Below, piece after piece: positions 11,307 through 22,281 of a stretch of 24,068 nt of DNA. This DNA is from a plasmid. Location of the stretch: the sequence record NZ_CP116716.1; one strand, given 5' to 3'. A model generated the notes under the pieces. That model was not told where the DNA came from. It did not search any database and saw only the letters and a list, made by a program, of their open reading frames with translations. A program made the translations under genes and the position numbers. Positions within the stretch are counted from its first letter, which is position 1. Each line of letters starts with the position of its first letter.

Positions 11307-11390
11307 GCGGCATTTGTTTGTGTTTCATCGTAGCCCTGCCGACTGTTCAGAAAACGGTGGTTTCTCAGGCATCCGAGAAGCGGGCATAAA

Positions 11391-11490
11391 TGTCATTTTC
11401 AGAAGACGACTGCACCAGACAACGCGGTTTGAAGGCTGTTGTGCAGTCGTCTATTGAACGAACAGTATCAGGAGTCCGCTGCACGAATGA
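11391..11490 (+). repeat. Tn402 / class 1 integron IRt-type terminal inverted repeat with internal TniA-binding-like repeats. The outer end is at 11391 and the interior is to the right.
   Basis: The stretch TGTCATTTTCAGAAGACGACTGCAC at 11391-11415 equals the 25-bp IRt of Tn402-family elements. Additional GTGCAGTCGTCT and CTGCAC repeats lie downstream. Confidence 0.8.
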
Positions 11491-11689
11491 TGACCTCAAG
11501 CCGGTTCTGGTCGCGCTGGCGACCGATCAGCCCCTGGATGTGCGATACCGCGACCACGATCTTTCCGGCGATTGGGCGGGCTACCGCGAATGCCACATCA
11601 AGCCCGACCTGCTGCTGATCTACCGCAAGTCCGACGCCGACACCCTGCGACTGGCGCGGCTTGGCTCCCATAGCGAGCTGTTCGGCTGA
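11441..11689 (+). pseudogene. yafQ/relE-family toxin gene remnant, probably 5'-truncated. No antitoxin gene is adjacent.
   Basis: The C-terminal ~60 aa match YafQ (DHDLSGDWAGYRECHIKPDLLLIYR...LGSHSELFG). The N-terminal third is replaced by IRt-derived sequence. The only in-frame starts are GTG at 11441 or ATG inside IRt. Confidence 0.45.
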
Positions 11690-11699
11690 TGCCAGTCGC

Positions 11700-11817
11700 C
11701 TTGTCCGCCAAACGATCATTAGTCGGCCATGCCGGACACTGTCCAGCAAAGTTATTGCACAACGGGTTGTCGGACATTAAGATAGGCGGACGGAATGACG
11801 GACAAGAGAGGCGGCAA
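11700..11817 (+). promoter_or_regulatory. Candidate res site upstream of the resolvase gene.
   Basis: GGACA/TGTCC half-site palindromes are present, for example GGACACTGTCC, GTCGGACA and GACGGACA. Confidence 0.3.
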
Positions 11818-12381
11818 ATGGCACTGATCGGCTATGCGCGGGTATCGACGGCGGAACAGGACACCGCCTTGCAGACGGATGCGCTACGCAAGGCAGGCTG
11901 CGAGCGCGTTTTCGAGGACACGGCTTCCGGGGCCAAGGCCGACCGCCCCGGCTTGGCTGATGCGCTGGCCTACCTGCGCGACGGCGACGTGCTGGCCGTC
12001 TGGCGGCTGGATCGGCTCGGGCGCTCTATGCCGCACCTAATCGAAACGATAGGCGCGCTGGAAGCGCGAGGCGTCGGCTTCCGTTCTCTGACGGAAGCCA
12101 TCGACACCACCACGCCAGGCGGGCGGCTCATCTTCCACGTGTTCGGCGCGCTGGGCCAGTTCGAGCGCGACTTGATCCGCGAGCGCACCAAGGCCGGGTT
12201 GACTGCCGCCGCCGCTCGTGGGAGGAAGGGCGGGCGAAAGCCGGTTGTCACCGCCGACAAGTTGCAGCGAGCGCGGGAGCACATCGCCAACGGGCTTAAT
12301 GTCCGAGAGGCCGCTACACGGCTCAAGGTGAGCAAGACGGCCCTGTACACCGCGCTGCAATCCACCAGTACGCGCAGGTAG
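11818..12381 (+). CDS. Serine recombinase of the resolvase/invertase family.
   Basis: MALIGYARVSTAEQDTALQ... has the catalytic Ser motif. There is a C-terminal HTH. GAGAGG RBS. Confidence 0.85.
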   Translation: MALIGYARVSTAEQDTALQTDALRKAGCERVFEDTASGAKADRPGLADALAYLRDGDVLAVWRLDRLGRSMPHLIETIGALEARGVGFRSLTEAIDTTTPGGRLIFHVFGALGQFERDLIRERTKAGLTAAAARGRKGGRKPVVTADKLQRAREHIANGLNVREAATRLKVSKTALYTALQSTSTRR

Positions 12382-12682
12382 ATGCGTGCGACTTTCATGC
12401 GGGCCTCCTGGTCATTTTGGGTATAGGGAAAATGACCATTGTTTCACGCCTAGCCAAAAAGGGAAGGTTCCCGGTTCAAATGTCGTTTTCAGAAGACGGC
12501 TGCACTGAACGTCAGAAGCCGACTGCACTATAGCAGCGGAGGGGTTGGATCCATCAGGCAACGACGGGCTGCTGCCGGCCATCAGCGGACGCAGGGAGGA
12601 CTTTCCGCAACCGGCCGTTCGATGCGGCACCGATGGCCTTCGCGCAGGGGTAGTGAATCCGCCAGGATTGACTTGCGCTGCC

Positions 12683-13696
12683 CTACCTCTCACTAGTGAG
12701 GGGCGGCAGCGCATCAAGCGGTGAGCGCACTCCGGCACCGCCAACTTTCAGCACATGCGTGTAAATCATCGTCGTAGAGACGTCGGAATGGCCGAGCAGA
12801 TCCTGCACGGTTCGAATGTCGTAACCGCTGCGGAGCAAGGCCGTCGCGAACGAGTGGCGGAGGGTGTGCGGTGTGGCGGGCTTCGTGATGCCTGCTTGTT
12901 CTACGGCACGTTTGAAGGCGCGCTGAAAGGTCTGGTCATACATGTGATGGCGACGCACGACACCGCTCCGTGGATCGGTCGAATGCGTGTGCTGCGCAAA
13001 AACCCAGAACCACGGCCAGGAATGCCCGGCGCGCGGATACTTCCGCTCAAGGGCGTCGGGAAGCGCAACGCCGCTGCGGCCCTCGGCCTGGTCCTTCAGC
13101 CACCATGCCCGTGCACGCGACAGCTGCTCGCGCAGGCTGGGTGCCAAGCTCTCGGGTAACATCAAGGCCCGATCCTTGGAGCCCTTGCCCTCCCGCACGA
13201 TGATCGTGCCGTGATCGAAATCCAGATCCTTGACCCGCAGTTGCAAACCCTCACTGATCCGCATGCCCGTTCCATACAGAAGCTGGGCGAACAAACGATG
13301 CTCGCCTTCCAGAAAACCGAGGATGCGAACCACTTCATCCGGGGTCAGCACCACCGGCAAGCGCCGCGACGGCCGAGGTCTTCCGATCTCCTGAAGCCAG
13401 GGCAGATCCGTGCACAGCACCTTGCCGTAGAAGAACAGCAAGGCCGCCAATGCCTGACGATGCGTGGAGACCGAAACCTTGCGCTCGTTCGCCAGCCAGG
13501 ACAGAAATGCCTCGACTTCGCTGCTGCCCAAGGTTGCCGGGTGACGCACACCGTGGAAACGGATGAAGGCACGAACCCAGTGGACATAAGCCTGTTCGGT
13601 TCGTAAGCTGTAATGCAAGTAGCGTATGCGCTCACGCAACTGGTCCAGAACCTTGACCGAACGCAGCGGTGGTAACGGCGCAGTGGCGGTTTTCAT
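12683..13696 (-). CDS. intI1: Class 1 integron integrase IntI1 (337 aa).
   Basis: Canonical IntI1 sequence ([44 protein letters not shown]...). Confidence 0.95.
13581..13609 (+). promoter_or_regulatory. Cassette promoter Pc, strong variant: -35 TGGACA, 17-bp spacer, -10 TAAGCT.
   Basis: The hexamers are seen directly inside the intI1 5' region. Confidence 0.7.
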
Positions 13697-13770
13697 GGCT
13701 TGTTATGACTGTTTTTTTGGGGTACAGTCTATGCCTCGGGCATCCAAGCAGCAAGCGCGTTACGCCGTGG

Positions 13771-13841
13771 GTCGATGTTTGATGTTATGGAGCAGCAACG
13801 ATGTTACGCAGCAGGGCAGTCGCCCTAAAACAAAGTTAGGC
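13771..13841 (+). promoter_or_regulatory. attI1 recombination site, copy 1.
   Basis: ...GCAGCAGGGCAGTCGCCCTAAAACAAAGTTAGGC, with the core GTTAGGC at 13835-13841. Confidence 0.8.
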
Positions 13842-14016
13842 CTCGCCGAAGCGAAGGTTTGCCACTTGAAGTGTTGACGCCTTTGTTTTAAAGTTTGGCG
13901 TCTATCTTTCTGATTTTGTTGATAAATCAGATTTTTATAAATCATGTTAGGCGTCAGACGCTTTTTGACTTAAACGCATCTGAGGCCGAATTAACGTTAG
14001 CCACCAAGAAGGTGCC

Positions 14017-14817
14017 ATGAAAACATTTGCCGCATATGTAATTATCGCGTGTCTTTCGAGTACGGCATTAGCTGGTTCAATTACAGAAAATACGTCTTGG
14101 AACAAAGAGTTCTCTGCCGAAGCCGTCAATGGTGTCTTCGTGCTTTGTAAAAGTAGCAGTAAATCCTGCGCTACCAATGACTTAGCTCGTGCATCAAAGG
14201 AATATCTTCCAGCATCAACATTTAAGATCCCCAGCGCAATTATCGGCCTAGAAACTGGTGTCATAAAGAATGAGCATCAGGTTTTCAAATGGGACGGAAA
14301 GCCAAGAGCCATGAAGCAATGGGAAAGAGACTTGACCTTAAGAGGGGCAATACAAGTTTCAGCTGTTCCCGTATTTCAACAAATCGCCAGAGAAGTTGGC
14401 GAAGTAAGAATGCAGAAATACCTTAAAAAATTTTCCTATGGCAACCAGAATATCAGTGGTGGCATTGACAAATTCTGGTTGGAAGGCCAGCTTAGAATTT
14501 CCGCAGTTAATCAAGTGGAGTTTCTAGAGTCTCTATATTTAAATAAATTGTCAGCATCTAAAGAAAACCAGCTAATAGTAAAAGAGGCTTTGGTAACGGA
14601 GGCGGCACCTGAATATCTAGTGCATTCAAAAACTGGTTTTTCTGGTGTGGGAACTGAGTCAAATCCTGGTGTCGCATGGTGGGTTGGGTGGGTTGAGAAG
14701 GAGACAGAGGTTTACTTTTTCGCCTTTAACATGGATATAGACAACGAAAGTAAGTTGCCGCTAAGAAAATCCATTCCCACCAAAATCATGGAAAGTGAGG
14801 GCATCATTGGTGGCTAA
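14017..14817 (+). CDS. blaOXA: OXA-10-family class D beta-lactamase (266 aa). It carries Ser at position 73, where OXA-10 is recalled to have Asn. This resembles the OXA-17-type substitution.
   Basis: The sequence is recognised by recall as OXA-10 (PSE-2); no alignment was run. The S-T-F-K active-site motif (STFK) is present. The sequence is AT-rich, typical of a cassette. Confidence 0.9.
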
Positions 14818-14848
14818 AACAAAGTTAGGCATCACAAAGTACAGCATC

Positions 14849-15403
14849 GTGACCAACAGCAACGATTCCGTCACACTGCGCCTCATGACTGAGCATGACC
14901 TTGCGATGCTCTATGAGTGGCTAAATCGATCTCATATCGTCGAGTGGTGGGGCGGAGAAGAAGCACGCCCGACACTTGCTGACGTACAGGAACAGTACTT
15001 GCCAAGCGTTTTAGCGCAAGAGTCCGTCACTCCATACATTGCAATGCTGAATGGAGAGCCGATTGGGTATGCCCAGTCGTACGTTGCTCTTGGAAGCGGG
15101 GACGGATGGTGGGAAGAAGAAACCGATCCAGGAGTACGCGGAATAGACCAGTCACTGGCGAATGCATCACAACTGGGCAAAGGCTTGGGAACCAAGCTGG
15201 TTCGAGCTCTGGTTGAGTTGCTGTTCAATGATCCCGAGGTCACCAAGATCCAAACGGACCCGTCGCCGAGCAACTTGCGAGCGATCCGATGCTACGAGAA
15301 AGCGGGGTTTGAGAGGCAAGGTACCGTAACCACCCCAGATGGTCCAGCCGTGTACATGGTTCAAACACGCCAGGCATTCGAGCGAACACGCAGTGATGCC
15401 TAA
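14849..15403 (+). CDS. aacA4: Aminoglycoside 6'-N-acetyltransferase AAC(6')-Ib.
   Basis: Canonical ...[32 protein letters not shown]...[10 protein letters not shown]. The start is the GTG at 14849 usually annotated. An in-frame GTG at 14795 inside the blaOXA 3' end is also possible. The 5' boundary is TTAGGCATCACAAAGTACAGCATCGTG. Confidence 0.9.
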
Positions 15404-15468
15404 CTTTGTTTTAGGGCGACTGCCCTGCTGCGTAACATCGTTGCTGCTCCATAACATCAAACATCGAC
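15398..15468 (-). promoter_or_regulatory. attI1 recombination site, copy 2 (inverted). Its core GCCTAAC overlaps the aacA4 stop codon.
   Basis: The reverse complement of 15398-15430 is GGGCAGTCGCCCTAAAACAAAGTTAGGC. Confidence 0.8.
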
Positions 15469-15542
15469 CCACGGCGTAACGCGCTTGCTGCTTGGATGCC
15501 CGAGGCATAGACTGTACCCCAAAAAAACAGTCATAACAAGCC

Positions 15543-16556
15543 ATGAAAACCGCCACTGCGCCGTTACCACCGCTGCGTTCGGTCAAGGTTCTGGACCAGT
15601 TGCGTGAGCGCATACGCTACTTGCATTACAGCTTACGAACCGAACAGGCTTATGTCCACTGGGTTCGTGCCTTCATCCGTTTCCACGGTGTGCGTCACCC
15701 GGCAACCTTGGGCAGCAGCGAAGTCGAGGCATTTCTGTCCTGGCTGGCGAACGAGCGCAAGGTTTCGGTCTCCACGCATCGTCAGGCATTGGCGGCCTTG
15801 CTGTTCTTCTACGGCAAGGTGCTGTGCACGGATCTGCCCTGGCTTCAGGAGATCGGAAGACCTCGGCCGTCGCGGCGCTTGCCGGTGGTGCTGACCCCGG
15901 ATGAAGTGGTTCGCATCCTCGGTTTTCTGGAAGGCGAGCATCGTTTGTTCGCCCAGCTTCTGTATGGAACGGGCATGCGGATCAGTGAGGGTTTGCAACT
16001 GCGGGTCAAGGATCTGGATTTCGATCACGGCACGATCATCGTGCGGGAGGGCAAGGGCTCCAAGGATCGGGCCTTGATGTTACCCGAGAGCTTGGCACCC
16101 AGCCTGCGCGAGCAGCTGTCGCGTGCACGGGCATGGTGGCTGAAGGACCAGGCCGAGGGCCGCAGCGGCGTTGCGCTTCCCGACGCCCTTGAGCGGAAGT
16201 ATCCGCGCGCCGGGCATTCCTGGCCGTGGTTCTGGGTTTTTGCGCAGCACACGCATTCGACCGATCCACGGAGCGGTGTCGTGCGTCGCCATCACATGTA
16301 TGACCAGACCTTTCAGCGCGCCTTCAAACGTGCCGTAGAACAAGCAGGCATCACGAAGCCCGCCACACCGCACACCCTCCGCCACTCGTTCGCGACGGCC
16401 TTGCTCCGCAGCGGTTACGACATTCGAACCGTGCAGGATCTGCTCGGCCATTCCGACGTCTCTACGACGATGATTTACACGCATGTGCTGAAAGTTGGCG
16501 GTGCCGGAGTGCGCTCACCGCTTGATGCGCTGCCGCCCCTCACTAGTGAGAGGTAG
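15543..16556 (+). CDS. intI1: Class 1 integron integrase IntI1, second copy.
   Basis: The 337-aa translation is identical to the first copy. Confidence 0.95.
15630..15658 (-). promoter_or_regulatory. Second PcS promoter (mirror copy). It is oriented antisense to aacA4 and blaOXA.
   Basis: Mirror position of Pc within the inverted 5'-CS copy. Confidence 0.6.
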
Positions 16557-16758
16557 GGCAGCGCAAGTCAATCCTGGCGGATTCACTACCCCTGCGCGAA
16601 GGCCATCGGTGCCGCATCGAACGGCCGGTTGCGGAAAGTCCTCCCTGCGTCCGCTGATGGCCGGCAGCAGCCCGTCGTTGCCTGATGGATCCAACCCCTC
16701 CGCTGCTATAGTGCAGTCGGCTTCTGACGTTCAGTGCAGCCGTCTTCTGAAAACGACA

Positions 16759-17109
16759 ATGGAGGTGGTAGCCGAGGGTGTGGAAACACCCGACTGCCTT
16801 GCGTGGTTGCGGCAGGCGGGTTGCGACACGGTGCAGGGTTTCCTGTTCGCCAGGCCGATGCCGGCGGCGGCCTTCGTCGGCTTCGTCAACCAATGGAGGA
16901 ACACCACCATGAACGCCAATGAACCGAGCACCAGTTGCTGCGTGTGCTGCAAGGAAATCCCGCTCGATGCCGCCTTCACGCCGGAAGGGGCCGAGTACGT
17001 GGAGCATTTCTGCGGGCTGGAGTGCTATCAGCGCTTCCAGGCGCGGGCCAGCACTGCGACCGAAACCAGCGTCAAACCGGACGCTTGTGATTCGCCGCCG
17101 TCAGGTTGA
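16759..17109 (+). CDS. tnpM: TnpM, the C-terminal EAL-domain fragment of urf2, as in Tn21.
   Basis: [35 protein letters not shown]... starts immediately after IRi. Confidence 0.8.
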
Positions 17110-17238
17110 GGCATACCCTAACCGGATGTCAGGTTAAGCCATTTGGAAGCGTCAGAATAGAGCCATGTTTCCAATTTCTTGACGGCTGCCGCACAAGGCC
17201 ATAGATTCCTTCCTGACACTTTCAGCTCGGGAGGCATC
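17110..17238 (+). promoter_or_regulatory. res site of the Tn21-subfamily transposon.
   Basis: The position between tnpM and tnpR is the expected one. TGTCAGGTTAAGC and CGTCAGAATAG-type subsite sequences are present. Confidence 0.6.
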
Positions 17239-17799
17239 TTGCAAGGGCATCGCATCGGTTACGTCCGCGTCAGTAGCTTCGACCAGAACCCGGAACGGCA
17301 GCTCGAACACGTCCCGGTGGACAAGGTGTTCACCGACAAGGCGTCGGGCAAGGACACGCAGCGCCCGCAGCTCGACGCGCTGCTCGCCTTCGTGCGCGAG
17401 GGCGACACGGTGGTGGTGCACAGCATGGACCGCCTGGCGCGCAACCTGGACGACCTGCGCCGCCTGGTACAGGGGCTTACCCGGCGCGGCGTGCGCATCG
17501 AGTTCGTGAAGGAATGCCTGACCTTCACCGGTGAGGACTCGCCGATGGCGAACCTGATGCTGTCGGTGATGGGCGCGTTCGCCGAGTTCGAACGCGCCCT
17601 GATCCGCGAACGTCAGCGCGAGGGCATTGCGCTCGCCAAACAGCGCGGAGCCTACCGGGGCCGCAAGAAGGCCCTCGCGCCTGAGCGGGTGGCCGACTTG
17701 CGCCGCCGCGCTGCCGCTGGCGAGAAGAAGGCGCAGCTCGCCCGCGAGTTCGGCATCAGCCGAGAAACCTTGTACCAGTATCTGAGAACGGATGACTGA
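17239..17799 (+). CDS. tnpR: Tn501/Tn1721-type resolvase TnpR.
   Basis: [23 protein letters not shown]... with a TTG start after a GGGAGG RBS. Confidence 0.9.
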
Positions 17800-17801
17800 C
17801 C

Positions 17802-20771
17802 ATGCCTCGCCGCAATTTGCTGACGCCCGCCGAGCGCACCAGCCTGCTTGCCTTCCCGGCTACTGACGATGAATTCATCCAGCATTACACCTTCTCCGAG
17901 TCCGACCTGTCGGTGATTCGCCAGCGGCGCGGCAGCCACAACCGGCTCGGCTTCGCGGTGCAGTTGTGCTACCTGCGCTACCCCGGCTTTGCCCTGCCGA
18001 CTGACGCGGAGCCGCCCGCCTCCCTGCTGAAGATCGTCGGTCGCCAGTTGCGCATCGAGCCGGACATTTGGTCGCAGTATGCGCAGCGGCCTGAAACCCG
18101 GCGCGAGCACCTGTTGGAGTTGCAAGCGTGGCTGAAACTGACGCCGTTCGCTGTCGCCGACTATCGGCACTTCGTTCACCAGCTCGCCGAACTGGCCCAG
18201 CAGACCGACCGGGGTATCGTGCTGGCCGAGGCGCTGGTCGAGTTGCTACGGCAACAACGCATCATCCTACCGACCGTCGATGTCATCGAGCGCGTGTGCA
18301 GCGAGGCGCTTACGCGCGGCACACGCCTGGTCTACGAAACGCTCACCGCGCCGCTCGGCGATTTCCACCGCCGTGCGCTCGACGGGCTGCTGGCGATCCG
18401 CGAGGGCACCAAGGGCAGTGGGCTGATCTGGTTGCGCCAGCCGCCCGGCCCACCGAAGCCCAAGCATGTGCTGGCCCACCTGGAGCGGCTGAAAACCATC
18501 CGCGACCTGTCGCTCCCGGACGGCCTGGAGCATGCCATCCACCAGAACCGTCTGCTGAAGCTCGCCCGCGAAGGCGGGCAGATGACGGCCCAGCACCTGC
18601 GCGACCTGGAGCTGAACCGTCGCTATGCAACCTTGGTCGCGGTGATCCTCGACACCCGCGCCACGCTGATCGACGAGATCATCGACCTGCACGACCGTTT
18701 CATGGGTTCGCTGTTCAGCAAGGCCAAGCGTAACCATGCCGACCGCTTTCAGCAGTCCGGCAAGGCGATCAACGACAAGGTGCGGCTGTACTCACGCATC
18801 GGCCGCGTCCTACTGGAAGCCAAGCAGTCGGGCGGCGATCCGTTCGCCGCCATCGAGGCGATCATCTCTTGGGATGCGTTCAGCGAAAGCATTACCGAAG
18901 CGGAAACGCTCGCCCGGCCGGAAGACTTCGATTTCCTGTCCCTGGTCGGCGACGGCTTCACCCAGCTCCGGCGTTACACGCCGGCCCTGCTGGACGCGCT
19001 GACCATGAAGGCTGCGCCGGCAGCGCGCGAACTGCTGTCCGGCGTCGAAGTGCTCAAAGGGATGAACTTCCGCCAAGCGCGCAAGGTGCCGGACGACGCG
19101 CCCACGTCGTTCGTGCGCAAGCGCTGGGAAAGCCTAGTGCGCACGGAAGATGGGCTTGACCGGCGCTTCTACGAGCTTTGCGTTCTGTCCGAGCTGAAGA
19201 ACTCACTGCGCTCCGGCGACATCTGGGTCCAGGGCTCGCGTCAGTTCAAGGATTTCGAGGACTACCTTTTGCCACCGCCGCGATTCGCGGCGCAGCGTGA
19301 CCAGCGGGAATTGGGCCTGGCTGTCGATACCGACTGCGACCGCTTTCTGGACGCTCGTCTTGCGGTGCTGCAAGAGCAACTGGCGACAGCCGAGCGGCTC
19401 GCCGCTGCCAACGAACTACCCGATGCAGCCATCACGAGCACCGGGCGAATCAAGATTACGCCGCTGGACAATGCCGTGCCGGATGAGGCCAAAGCGTTGA
19501 TGCAGCAGGCATACAGCTTGCTGCCGCACCTGAAGATCACCGAGCTGCTGCTGGAAGTCGATGGCTGGATCGGCTTTAGCCGCCACTTCAAGCACCTCAA
19601 GAGCGGCGCGACGGCCGAAGACCAGCACCTGTTGCTGACGACCATCCTTGCCGATGCCATCAACTTGGGCCTCTCCAAGATGGCTGAGTCCTGCCCTGGT
19701 GTGACCTACGCCAAGCTGACGTGGTTGCAGGCGTGGCACATCCGCGACGAAACCTATTCGGCGGGTCTGGCCGAGCTGGTCAACGCCCAGTTCCGCCAAC
19801 CCTTCGCCGCCTACTGGGGCGATGGCACCACGTCGTCATCGGACGGCCAGAACTTCAAGGCCGGCGGCCGTGGCCAAGCTGCCGGCCAAGTGAACCTGAA
19901 GTACGGTCAGGAGCCGGGCGTGCAGTTCTACACCCACATCTCCGACCAGTACGCGCCATTTCACACCAAGGTCATCAATGCCACGGTGCGCGACGCTACC
20001 CACGTCCTGGACGGGCTGCTGTATCACGAATCTGACCTGCGCATCGAGGAGCACTACACCGACACAGCCGGCTTCACCGATCACCTGTTTGCGCTGATGC
20101 ACCTCTTGGGCTTCCGCTTCGCCCCTCGCATCCGCGATCTGGCCGACAAGCGCCTATATATCCACGGCGACGCCAAACAGTACCCGACGCTCGCCGGTTT
20201 GATCGGTGGCAACGTCAACGTGAAGCACATTCGCGCCCATTGGGATGAAATCCTGCGGCTGGCAGCCTCGATCAAGCAGGGCACGGTGACGGCCTCGCTG
20301 ATGCTCCGAAAGCTCGGCAGCTATCCGCGCCAGAACGGCCTGGCCGTGGCCTTGCGCGAGCTGGGGCGCATCGAGCGCACGCTGTTCGCGCTCGACTGGA
20401 TGCAGAACGTCCAGTTGCGCCGCCGCGTGCAGATCGGTCTGAACAAGGGGGAGGCCAAGAACGCGCTGGCCCGAGCCGTGTTCCTGAACCGGCTCGGTGA
20501 AATCCGTGACCGCAGTTTCGAGAACCAGCGCTACCGCGCGAGCGGCCTCAACCTAGTGGTGGCGGCGATCATCCTGTGGAACACGGTTTACCTGGAACGG
20601 GCAGTCCAGGCGCTGCGCGACTCGGGCAAGAACATCGACAAGGGGCTGCTACCGCATCTTTCGCCGCTGGGCTGGGAGCACATCAACCTGACCGGCGATT
20701 ACATCTGGCGGCAGAACAAGCAGGTCGAGCAAGGCAAGTTCCGGCCGCTACGAATGCTTGCCGAAGCTTAG
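17802..20771 (+). CDS. tnpA: Tn3-family (Tn21 subgroup) transposase TnpA, 989 aa.
   Basis: Full-length ORF ending inside the 38-bp IR (...[11 protein letters not shown]). Confidence 0.95.
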
Positions 20772-20804
20772 CGTACGATTTTTTCCGTTTCGTGAGCTGA
20801 CCCC
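20767..20804 (-). repeat. 38-bp terminal inverted repeat of a Tn501/Tn1721/Tn1696-like transposon.
   Basis: CTTAGCGTACGATTTTTTCCGTTTCGTGAGCTGACCCC. Its inner 21 bp are identical to the Tn501-type IR. Confidence 0.85.
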
Positions 20805-20805
20805 T

Positions 20806-20916
20806 ATTTGTCCCCGCTGGGGTGGGAGCATATCAACCTGACCGGCGATTACCTATGGCGCAGCAGTGCCAAGGTCGGTGCGGGGAAGTTCAGGCCATTG
20901 CGACCGCTGCCACCGG
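20806..20916 (+). pseudogene. Remnant of the Tn21 tnpA 3' end (...[36 protein letters not shown]).
   Basis: It is a second, divergent copy of the tnpA C-terminal coding sequence. It lies directly after the 38-bp IR and reads into the Tn21-type IR. Confidence 0.7.
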
Positions 20917-20933
20917 CTTAGCGTGCTTTATTT
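20917..20933 (-). repeat. Tn21 IRtnp, inner 17 bp, separated from the remainder by an IS insertion.
   Basis: CTTAGCGTGCTTTATTT. Confidence 0.8.
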
Positions 20934-22260
20934 AATGAGATGGTCACTCCCTCCTTCCCAGTACTATGCTGAGGACAGGCTTTCATTCGGAGAACCATCA
21001 TGGAAAACATTGCGCTTATTGGTATCGATCTGGGTAAGAACTCTTTCCATATTCATTGTCAGGATCATCGTGGGAAGGCCGTTTACCGTAAAAAATTCAC
21101 CCGACCAAAGCTAATCGAATTTCTGGCGACATGCCCAGCAACAACCATCGCGATGGAAGCCTGTGGCGGTTCTCACTTTATGGCACGCAAGCTGGCAGAG
21201 TTAGGGCATTTTCCAAAGCTGATATCACCGCAATTTGTCCGCCCATTCGTTAAAAGCAACAAAAATGACTTCGTTGATGCTGAAGCTATCTGTGAAGCAG
21301 CATCACGTCCATCTATGCGTTTCGTGCAGCCCAGAACCGAATCTCAGCAGGCAATGCGAGCTCTGCATCGTGTCCGTGAATCCCTGGTTCAGGATAAGGT
21401 GAAAACAACTAATCAGATGCATGCTTTTCTGCTGGAATTTGGTATCAGCGTTCCGCGAGGTGCTGCCGTTATTAGTCGACTGAGTACCCTTCTTGAGGAC
21501 AGTAGTTTGCCTCTTTATCTCAGCCAGTTACTGCTGAAATTACAACAGCATTATCACTATCTTGTTGAGCAGATTAAAGATCTGGAATCTCAGTTGAAAC
21601 GAAAGTTGGACGAAGATGAGGTTGGACAGCGCTTGCTGAGTATTCCCTGCGTTGGAACGCTGACTGCCAGTACTATTTCAACTGAGATTGGCGACGGGAA
21701 GCAGTACGCCAGCAGCCGTGACTTTGCGGCGGCAACAGGGCTGGTACCCCGACAGTACAGCACGGGAGGTCGGACGACATTGTTAGGGATTAGCAAGCGG
21801 GGCAACAAAAAGATCCGAACTTTGTTGGTTCAGTGTGCCAGGGTATTCATACAAAAACTGGAACACCAGTCTGGCAAGTTGGCCGACTGGGTCAGGGAGT
21901 TGTTGTGTCGGAAAAGCAACTTTGTCGTCACCTGTGCTCTGGCAAACAAGCTGGCCAGAATAGCCTGGGCACTGACGGCGCGACAGCAAACTTACGAAGC
22001 ATAAAGGCAGAAATACACCAGTTTAAACAATCATTCATCTGGTTTTGCGAATACTGATATTGATGATACAAACGGCCCACCGGCCTGTTGAGGAACCTGT
22101 AAAACGGAAAGGCTCGCTGAAGCCGTATATTTTCTGGAGGTTCATCAGGCGCGGAACTCATCGAGGCGCGGGAATAAAATCCCATTCAGACGCCGGATAG
22201 ATTCAAGCAAGCCAACTTATCGTCAAAATCGGTGTTGCAAAAACGGGAGTGACCATAGAT
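20934..22260 (+). mobile_element. IS4321/IS5075-like insertion sequence (IS110 family, IS1111 group), 1327 bp, inserted in the Tn21 38-bp IR.
   Basis: The length is exactly 1327 bp. It contains an IS110-family transposase gene. Subterminal inverted repeats ATGGTCACTCCC / GGGAGTGACCAT are present. Insertion in the IRs of Tn21-family transposons is the hallmark of IS4321/IS5075. Confidence 0.85.
21000..22004 (+). CDS. IS110-family transposase (334 aa).
   Basis: MENIALIGIDLGKNSFHIHCQD... has the typical N-terminal DEDD motif region of the IS110 family. Confidence 0.95.
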   Translation: MENIALIGIDLGKNSFHIHCQDHRGKAVYRKKFTRPKLIEFLATCPATTIAMEACGGSHFMARKLAELGHFPKLISPQFVRPFVKSNKNDFVDAEAICEAASRPSMRFVQPRTESQQAMRALHRVRESLVQDKVKTTNQMHAFLLEFGISVPRGAAVISRLSTLLEDSSLPLYLSQLLLKLQQHYHYLVEQIKDLESQLKRKLDEDEVGQRLLSIPCVGTLTASTISTEIGDGKQYASSRDFAAATGLVPRQYSTGGRTTLLGISKRGNKKIRTLLVQCARVFIQKLEHQSGKLADWVRELLCRKSNFVVTCALANKLARIAWALTARQQTYEA

Positions 22261-22281
22261 TCCGTTTTCTGAGACGACCCC
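22261..22281 (-). repeat. Tn21 IRtnp, outer 21 bp (TCCGTTTTCTGAGACGACCCC). The transposon outer end is at 22281.
   Basis: Joined with 20917-20933, this reconstitutes the 38-bp Tn21 IR. Confidence 0.8.

Follow-up and report, generated by a model that had tools for sequence, protein, structure and literature searches.

Two class 1 integron platforms face each other across one attC-free cassette array in an IncP-6-type plasmid: a probable integrase-mediated fusion

Canonical class 1 integrons, such as In2 in Tn21 and those of the plasmids pJF-786 and CP115730, possess one 5'-conserved segment (5'-CS), consisting of the inverted repeat IRi, the integrase gene intI1, the promoters Pc and P2 and the recombination site attI1, as well as a 3'-conserved segment (3'-CS; qacEΔ1-sul1-orf5). 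In this study, the class 1 integron region of the plasmid NZ_CP116716.1 was analyzed, and the whole stretch of DNA considered, referred to as the window, represents the complete circular plasmid of 24,068 bp, so that absence from the plasmid covers the entire molecule. The window has the same IRi, intI1, Pc–P2 and attI1 as the canonical integrons, its left copy being located at the site used in its relatives and its right copy in a tnpM site with the flank ATGGA. In contrast to them, it contains a second full 5'-CS facing the first one, and its last cassette ends at the R'' box on an inverted attI1, whereas a 3'-CS, IRt/tni and any complete attC are missing.

Among the closest described systems, the ΔattI1 cassettes (Partridge 2000/2009; Gonzales Machuca et al. 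2026, PMC12901181) resemble the window in that attC was lost at R'' and attI1 sequence is present instead, and IntI1-mediated recombination between attI1 and R'' was proposed for their origin (PMC12901181), as it is here for the window. However, these cassettes carry a short attI1 fragment (14–18 nt) in direct orientation, acquired via the L box, whereas in NZ_CP116716.1 a whole 5'-CS is attached in inverted orientation via the R box. For products of top-strand recombination in suicide-conjugation assays (Bouvier 2009, PMC2727003; Nivina 2016, PMC5027507), the predicted anatomy, with attI1 joined at the AAC of R'', matches positions 15398–15404 of the window. Those products are experimental single-cassette insertions, whereas the window combines two entire integrons and has lost the other half of attC. 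Off-target events of IntI1 and inversion between two attI1 sites (Souque 2023, PMC10127599; Escudero 2016, PMC4792948) likewise depend on IntI1 and on GTTRRRY-like or duplex sites, but they concern secondary sites in a backbone or two attI1 sites, and none of them joined attI1 to the R'' of a cassette. Finally, two complete inverted 5'-CS copies within a few kilobases are also present in pSCH909, pPSJ-36_1 and pb1-2L-1. In these plasmids the IRi ends face each other across IS26 and the arrays are directed outward, whereas in the window the attI1 ends face each other over one array, and no IS26 is involved. The top matches with two intI1 genes obtained in our search were all IS26-mediated and arranged back-to-back.

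The structure is based on a perfect inverted repeat of 1361 bp (12481–13841 versus 15398–16758), for which no mismatch was detected base by base, and on a spacer of 1556 bp carrying an OXA-10-family bla gene and aacA4. The repeat search reported this 5'-CS pair as the sole long inverted repeat of the window, and a repeat so long and so precise cannot be of chance origin. An earlier note on this DNA had described two fully identical arms of 1355 bp; their identity was confirmed, whereas their actual length is 1361 bp. The six bases beyond 1355 are TTAGGC, which both arms share since the 7-bp core occurs in the first cassette's start (left) as well as in the aacA4 inverse core (right). Outward, the arms are identical up to the last base of the 25-bp IRi, beyond which TCAAA (left) and ATGGA (right) follow; inward, their identity ends with the attI1 core. 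The arms comprise the following features:

12481–13841, minus strand: left 5'-CS arm (IRi-intI1-Pc-attI1)
12481–12505: left IRi
12683–13696, minus strand: left intI1
13581–13586 and 13604–13609: −35 and −10 boxes of the left PcW
13700–13728: left P2 with GGG insertion
About 13780–13841: left attI1, crossover G13835/T13836
15398–16758, plus strand: right 5'-CS arm, mirror image of the left one
About 15398–15459: right attI1
15511–15539: right P2, firing leftward
15630–15658: right Pc, firing leftward
15543–16556, plus strand: right intI1
16734–16758: right IRi

Both intI1 copies are intact (337 amino acids), reach 799 bits each against the integron-integrase model NF011946 (cutoff 435), and encode the R32/H39 form of IntI1, which is linked to PcW. 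On both arms, the attI1 core adjoining intI1 reads ...GCAGGGCAGTCGCCCTAAAACAAAG/TTAGGC, and IRi, intI1, Pc/P2 and attI1 are at least 99.6% identical to the canonical class 1 integrons compared. The promoter had previously been taken for PcS; the sequence gives TGGACA-N17-TAAGCT, i.e., PcW, together with a P2 (TTGTTA-N17-TACAGT) containing the GGG insertion, and P2 is predicted from the promoter sequence to be active alongside PcW.

Between the arms, the cassette array and the junction with the right arm are composed as follows:

13836–13994, plus strand: 159-bp segment without an open reading frame (ORF), between attI1 and the bla cassette
13995–14830, plus strand: OXA-10-family bla cassette of the ΔattI1-11 type
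14017–14817, plus strand: bla coding sequence
14814–14830: ΔattI1-11 site CTAAAACAAAGTTAGGC, a 17-nt attI1 fragment in place of the bla attC
14825–15404, plus strand: aacA4 cassette, cut off at the inverse core
14849–15403, plus strand: aacA4 coding sequence, product identical to AAC(6')-Ib4
15398–15404: junction core GCCTAAC, R'' and stop codon of aacA4 and also the complement of the inverted attI1 GTTAGGC

The decisive feature of the locus is the right-hand junction. aacA4 ends with ...AGTGATGCCTAAC and is immediately followed by TTTGTTTTAGGGCGAC, the reverse complement of attI1, the junction thus reading ...CGCAGTGATGCCTAAC/TTTGTTTTAGGGCGAC. In CP115730, the same aacA4 end continues with GCCTAACCCTTCCATCGAGG... 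through a 72-bp attC, and aacA4 is followed by CCTTCCATCGAGG where its attC is normal. It had been stated before that aacA4 is devoid of its attC and that the junction is located exactly at the attI1 crossover core. Both observations were borne out, since only R'' (GCCTAAC) was kept where the relative runs on into attC, and the join coincides exactly with the first 7 bp (R'') of attC-aacA4 as well. Judged by this overlap, the crossover position is somewhere within the 7-bp core 15398–15404. On the plus strand the junction reads GCCTAA/CTTTGTTTTAGGGC, where GCCTAA represents the 5' part of the attC-aacA4 top strand and the 3' side, CTTTGTTTTAGGG..., the 3' part of the attI1 bottom strand; the pattern of this junction class is RYYYAAC followed by TTTGTTTTAGGGCGACTGCC.

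A database search for this junction, as the earlier note had suggested, was carried out, and the junction was found in none of the collections searched. A 121-bp junction query yielded no place with at least 80% coverage in PLSDB and no match among complete Escherichia coli genomes, while an exact 32-mer and an allele-tolerant 29-mer were detected neither in the GTDB species representative genomes nor in JGI metagenome contigs. Likewise, no PLSDB record covered at least 80% of a 4.7-kb query representing the whole structure, and the assembly collection held no record of the ORF spanning the junction (15167–15613, minus strand). In the literature, no description of head-to-head or face-to-face integrons, of two intI1 genes in IncP-6, or of a plasmid of this size was found. 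All parts of the structure are known, namely the 5'-CS, the ΔattI1-11 cassette, aacA4, the Tn21-type tnpM context, the res hybrid and the IncP-6-type backbone. What we could not find elsewhere is a complete inverted attI1 joined to the R'' of a cassette, with two platforms facing each other over a shared array free of attC.

As already recognized in the earlier note, the outer contexts of the two arms differ, being a resolvase context on the left and a Tn21-type tnpM context on the right, which indicates that two integrons of separate origin were joined and that neither arm is a fold-back copy of the other. The left IRi is located at the same backbone base as in CP115730, pJF-786, NZ_CP050076 and the IncP-6-type contig ABKTUQ010000034 (L009). 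The backbone segments shared by L009 and the window are 100% identical, and L009 carries the same Tn3-family transposon, with both inverted repeats (IRs), at the same site. Its integron, adjoining the transposon, is a normal one (dfrA, aadA, qacEΔ1, sul1, orf5). The right arm is followed by these features:

16759–17109, plus strand: tnpM/urf2 remnant (EAL C-terminus and DUF3330), Tn21-type flank of IRi, starting with ATGGA
17096–17135, plus strand: hybrid res subsite, left half Tn21-type, right half as in the resident transposon of L009
17239–17799, plus strand: tnpR
17802–20771, plus strand: tnpA
20767–20804: 38-bp terminal IR of a Tn3-family transposon other than Tn21

The right IRi adjoins ATGGAGGTGGTAGCC..., the tnpM remnant, and from there up to the left half of res the sequence is 100% identical to the tnpM-context copy of pSCH909. 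The switch from Tn21-type to L009-type sequence occurs inside res subsite I, within ATACCCTAAC..GATGTCAG. Contig JAXABR010000016 (L008) displays the order attI1-intI1-IRi-tnpM-res-tnpR-tnpA with 99.9% identity to positions 15401–20806 of the window, its first cassette being a normal blaVIM-2. A type switch in res subsite I is also known from hybrid transposons of the Tn21 subgroup, representing an ordinary feature that is relevant here only as the likely second crossover. The region next to the right IRi had been assigned to Tn21 as such; this applies to tnpM and the left half of res, whereas tnpR, tnpA and the 38-bp IR differ from Tn21.

The structure is probably a real fusion of two separately originating class 1 integrons, which were connected by an IntI1-mediated attI1 × R'' join followed by a second crossover. 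A non-canonical IntI1-mediated event of the inversion type had been proposed for it. The involvement of IntI1 is still the best reading, whereas an inversion is not supported, given the lack of a reciprocal junction and cores that are direct repeats. For the enzyme, the strand and the order of events, we infer the following course. One integron would have resided in an Rms149/IncP-6-type plasmid similar to L009, beside the toxin-resolvase element, and the other in a replicon with a Tn21-type tnpM site, beside res. In the next step, IntI1 would have connected the attI1 of one integron with the R'' end of attC-aacA4 in its partner. The substrate may have been the folded top strand of attC-aacA4 or, alternatively, duplex R'', whose complement is a perfect GTTAGGC and which would have served as a GTTRRRY secondary site; the same junction sequence would result in both cases. 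Deducing the transferred strand from oriT, by analogy with RP4, was judged too indirect a guide to the attC strand that would be exposed. Since both GTTAGGC cores are minus-strand direct repeats, a single exchange would lead to a deletion in cis or to a replicon fusion (cointegrate) in trans. A second crossover between directly repeated res/tnpR-tnpA modules, mediated by TnpR at res or by homologous recombination, would have removed the remaining part of attC-aacA4, the 3'-CS and the partner replicon, leaving the 24-kb plasmid. This crossover is placed in res/tnp because the res site is hybrid and L009 has the same transposon at the same spot. Resolvases prefer directly repeated res sites, and, based on general knowledge and our own topological reasoning, the two res sites would be direct repeats in the cointegrate. 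The 1361-bp arms may have been identical from the start or may have been made so later, gene conversion being the likely cause. As the spacer can flip, either integron could first have carried the bla-aacA4 array.

Several published observations are in agreement with such a course. IntI1 cleaves attI1 and the folded attC in 5'-AA/C-3', the triplet of the attC top strand falling in R'', and recombination of the top strand inserts a cassette in inverted orientation (PMC5027507). According to the same authors, no cassettes oriented towards the promoter have ever been seen in mobile or chromosomal integrons (PMC5027507). At 15398–15404, the cassette faces Pc as predicted for top-strand attI1 × attC recombination; no reciprocal junction is present, so that the locus does not correspond to a simple inverted cassette insertion. 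Rearrangements of plasmids by off-target activity of IntI1 at GTTRRRY-like sites were shown experimentally (PMC10127599), and duplex attI-type sites were recombined with exchange of the second strand (PMC4792948). Furthermore, ΔattI1-11 cassettes were attributed to L-box × R'' recombination, blaOXA-10-ΔattI1-11 being the commonest of them (65 of 96 cases; PMC12901181). Natural R'' × attI1 crossovers are already known in this form, and one of them is part of the same array. Folding of attC-aacA4 resulted in a hairpin on both strands (bottom strand, −22.6 kcal/mol; top strand, −17.4 kcal/mol).

Some points weigh against the fusion by IntI1. For attC-aacA4, the hairpin of the top strand is less stable than that of the bottom strand, which would fit a rare top-strand event without deciding the matter, and top-strand recombination was 10^3–10^4 times rarer than bottom-strand recombination in assays (PMC5027507). 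Moreover, the junction is known from a single assembly and was not found in any other record of PLSDB, the complete E. coli genomes, the GTDB representatives and the JGI metagenomes, and the sequence alone cannot separate a top-strand event from one at a duplex secondary site, nor can it prove the involvement of IntI1. The weakest point of the record is the identity of the two GGG-bearing arms. All polymorphisms among the 5'-CS copies compared fall in the Pc–P2 region (13582–13722), and the GGG insertion is present in both arms (13719–13722 and 15517–15520). It is absent in every resolvase-context relative (L001, L004, L005, L009 and the second copy of pSCH909) as well as in L008, so that the nearest relatives for either context are without it. 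The tnpM-context 5'-CS of pSCH909 does carry GGG and is 100% identical to both arms of the window. As a simple flip of the spacer only swaps differences, the arm identity needs gene conversion, an unsampled parent with GGG, or collapse or polishing of the repeat; gene conversion between the 1.36-kb inverted repeats is a plausible source. That the locus specifically represents the natural footprint of top-strand attC × attI1 recombination by IntI1, combined with an attC-free array invertible under the control of the integrase, is proposed only tentatively and appears clearly less probable than the fusion itself.

An assembly or library artefact, in which the true plasmid contains a normal integron and the inverted 5'-CS was added by a chimeric read or a collapsed-repeat path, is considered unlikely, although the caution of the earlier note in this regard still applies. 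The uniqueness of the junction would be expected in this case, arms that are 100% identical despite the GGG difference among the nearest relatives are what collapse or polishing would give, and assemblers are known to be misled by long inverted repeats. However, the join shares just 7 bp, which is insufficient for a mis-join based on k-mers or overlaps, and the break is found at two recombination cores and at no random point. The structure is no true palindrome either, given its unique spacer of 1556 bp and its differing outer flanks, and the plasmid closes as a coherent backbone collinear with its relatives. In addition, an independent Logan short-read assembly has a graph branch at IRi. Its contig SRR23190728_487 is identical to positions 11334–12510 of the window, including a 48-bp deletion described below, and stops 30 bases into IRi. 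This end fits a branch of the de Bruijn graph, since IRi would have more than one neighbour in the sample.

The model of the earlier note, an IntI1-mediated inversion in cis between attI1 and the attC-aacA4 inverse core of another integron lying in inverted orientation, appears quite improbable. It leads to the same junction anatomy, and IntI1 is able to invert DNA between inverted attI1 sites (PMC4792948) and between secondary sites (PMC10127599). Against this, the expected reciprocal junction (the remaining part of attC-aacA4 followed by TTAGGC and a cassette) and the 3'-CS are absent, so that a further large deletion would be needed, and, according to their core sequence, the sites are direct and not inverted. 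For attI and a folded attC on inverted sites, resolution by replication is abortive (PMC4792948). Finally, the backbone on the right of the transposon has kept the orientation of the relatives.

Slippage and microhomology deletions occur in plasmids, and an IntI1-independent illegitimate recombination of this kind between the 7-bp direct repeats GCCTAAC would explain the microhomology of 7 bp at the junction. By our own estimate (length squared/4^7), regions of several kilobases share about a thousand 7-mer pairs, which makes a chance hit exactly on the attI1 crossover core and the first 7 bp of an attC unlikely, and both intI1 genes of the plasmid are intact and of the active R32/H39 type; this origin is held to be very unlikely. 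An inverted duplication of one integron, caused by a template switch between GTTAGGC in attI1 and GCCTAAC in the R'' of aacA4, would be in line with identical arms and with 7-mers forming an inverted pair within one integron, but such a copy would run past IRi into the left flank, whereas the identity ends at IRi, the right flank is a Tn21-type tnpM and the 5-bp flanks are unlike (TCAAA versus ATGGA), so that this explanation can be dismissed almost entirely. A composite transposon bounded by the two IRi was rejected because the 5-bp flanks form no target duplication, and a newly transposed integron-bearing transposon with a subsequent deletion is less likely than recombinational replacement, as L009 has the transposon at the exact site.

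If real, the fusion means that, under natural conditions, the "wrong" end of an attC can be used by IntI1 to attach an entire second integron, and the locus would probably exemplify in nature a reaction that is known from in vitro work and was stated to lack natural observations. The resistance genes and all parts themselves are ordinary; the structure fuses two resistance platforms, has lost the 3'-CS (sul1/qacEΔ1), a marker often used for detection and typing of class 1 integrons, and brings in a further pair of promoters with antisense orientation to the resistance genes. The right PcW and P2 (15511–15658, minus strand) point into the 3' end of aacA4 and, based on their position, should drive antisense transcription over both resistance genes, convergent with the left promoters. 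For annotators, the intI1 copy number and cassette polymerase chain reaction (PCR) between 5'-CS and 3'-CS can mislead in such cases, while for integron biochemists attC-aacA4 offers a natural substrate for work on strand selectivity.

No complete attC is left in the array, as bla ends in ΔattI1-11 and aacA4 keeps only R'', and therefore canonical excision by attC × attC and attI × attC recombination is closed. Architectures of this type were excisable in one study (PMC12901181), and by analogy recombination between attI1 and ΔattI1-11 could still excise the bla unit. Flipping of the array as a whole is to be expected, with RecA-dependent recombination of the two arms or IntI1-mediated attI1 × attI1 recombination as the routes. 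Since one sense and one antisense PcW/P2 pair would be present in either orientation, flipping would change only which outer context is linked to the "normal" junction.

Regarding the left part of the array, the claim that attI1 is joined normally to a blaOXA-10 cassette requires modification, since the 159-bp segment intervenes and the allele is not OXA-10. The bla product represents OXA-10 with the substitution N73S and is identical to a protein annotated as OXA-17 (extended-spectrum) in NZ_CP050076; 844 blocks of the assembly collection include exactly this protein. In the 159-bp segment, additional core-like sites are found (GTTAGGC at 13946 and GTTAGCC at 13995), along with a small, stable hairpin, but the R''...R' succession of an attC is not displayed. 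L001 and L002 have this segment together with the OXA-10-family cassette, whereas L004 lacks it. The stop codon of bla runs directly into the ΔattI1-11 site, and GGCTAAAACAAAGTTAGGC at 14812–14830 agrees with the definition of ΔattI1-11 (a fragment with the consensus AAACAAAGTTRRRY directly after the ORF; PMC12901181). In CP115730, the same bla gene continues into GGCTAACAAGTCGCTC..., and plasmid pPALO532 (L002) has the identical fusion of bla-ΔattI1-11 to aacA4. The missing attC of bla had escaped the earlier note; it belongs to a known and widespread unusual cassette (PMC12901181).

On the left of the double integron, a toxin-resolvase element is located:

11391–11415, plus strand: 25-bp terminal IR of the Tn402/Tn5053 type (TGTCATTTTCAGAAGACGACTGCAC), left end of the element
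11441–11689, plus strand: YafQ/RelE-type toxin gene (TIGR00053/TIGR02385), the same gene being annotated in pJF-786
11818–12381, plus strand: serine recombinase (resolvase), 3' end altered by a deletion

The terminal IR matches IRi at 92–93%. Compared with pJF-786, CP115730, NZ_CP050076 and L009, the window features a specific 48-bp deletion at 12369/12370, which removes the right 25-bp Tn402-type IR of the element (kept in the relatives) and rewrites the C-terminus of the resolvase; the exact altered resolvase was found in just one other contig, the Logan contig mentioned above. The IR at 11391–11415 and the right IRi (16734–16758) form an inverted pair with a match of 92%, bracketing 5.4 kb with the toxin gene, the resolvase gene and the double integron. 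Because the element has lost its own right IR, these two are now the outermost Tn402-type ends.

The transposon on the right of the double integron is followed by one further composite feature:

20805–22281, plus strand: older Tn21-type tnpA 3'-end remnant with a 38-bp IR, together with an IS110-family element

The IR end of the Tn3-family transposon at 20804 lies inside this older remnant, and no second IR of the tnpR/tnpA transposon was found in the window. The IS110-family element (IS5075/IS4321-like; about 20934–22259, transposase 21000–22004) splits the 38-bp IR of the remnant, whereas L009 has the same tnpA remnant without it. tnpR and tnpA are at most 85% identical to any record of PLSDB or the E. 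coli genomes, and the exact TnpA is listed in 65 blocks of the assembly collection. At about 17120–17121 in res subsite I, the window has CG where both comparators have TT.

Judged by its backbone (rep-mob-traI-par), which is collinear with pJF-786, CP115730 and NC_007100, the plasmid is of the Rms149/IncP-6 type and mobilizable; NC_007100 is Rms149 itself. Over its full length, the window could be aligned with the complete circular plasmids pJF-786 (KX912255) and CP115730, the alignment with pJF-786 wrapping around the start of the record, and identity to pJF-786 ranges between 99.4% and 100% across the main backbone blocks and is lower around the iteron region. The gene order is rep with 17-bp iterons, mob and traI, the toxin-resolvase element, the double integron, the transposon and par. 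The 3'-CS, which is present in the relatives L001, L004, L005 and L009, as well as tni and IRt were found nowhere in the plasmid, and the same applies to the reciprocal junction and the remaining part of attC-aacA4.

Just downstream of rep, a 17-bp unit (GTAGCGCCTGCCTTTGA) is repeated in 18.6 perfect tandem copies at 1481–1796, and degenerate 17-bp copies flank this array on both sides (wider region 1413–1871). These tandem copies are probably iterons, and their copy number seems to be variable, since the relatives align there only in fragments. As a further observation, many of the contigs with the exact TnpA (among L006 and L010–L015) are chromosomal, the tnpA gene being located beside a flagellin/FlaG/FliD/FliS cluster and an ABC-ATPase gene.

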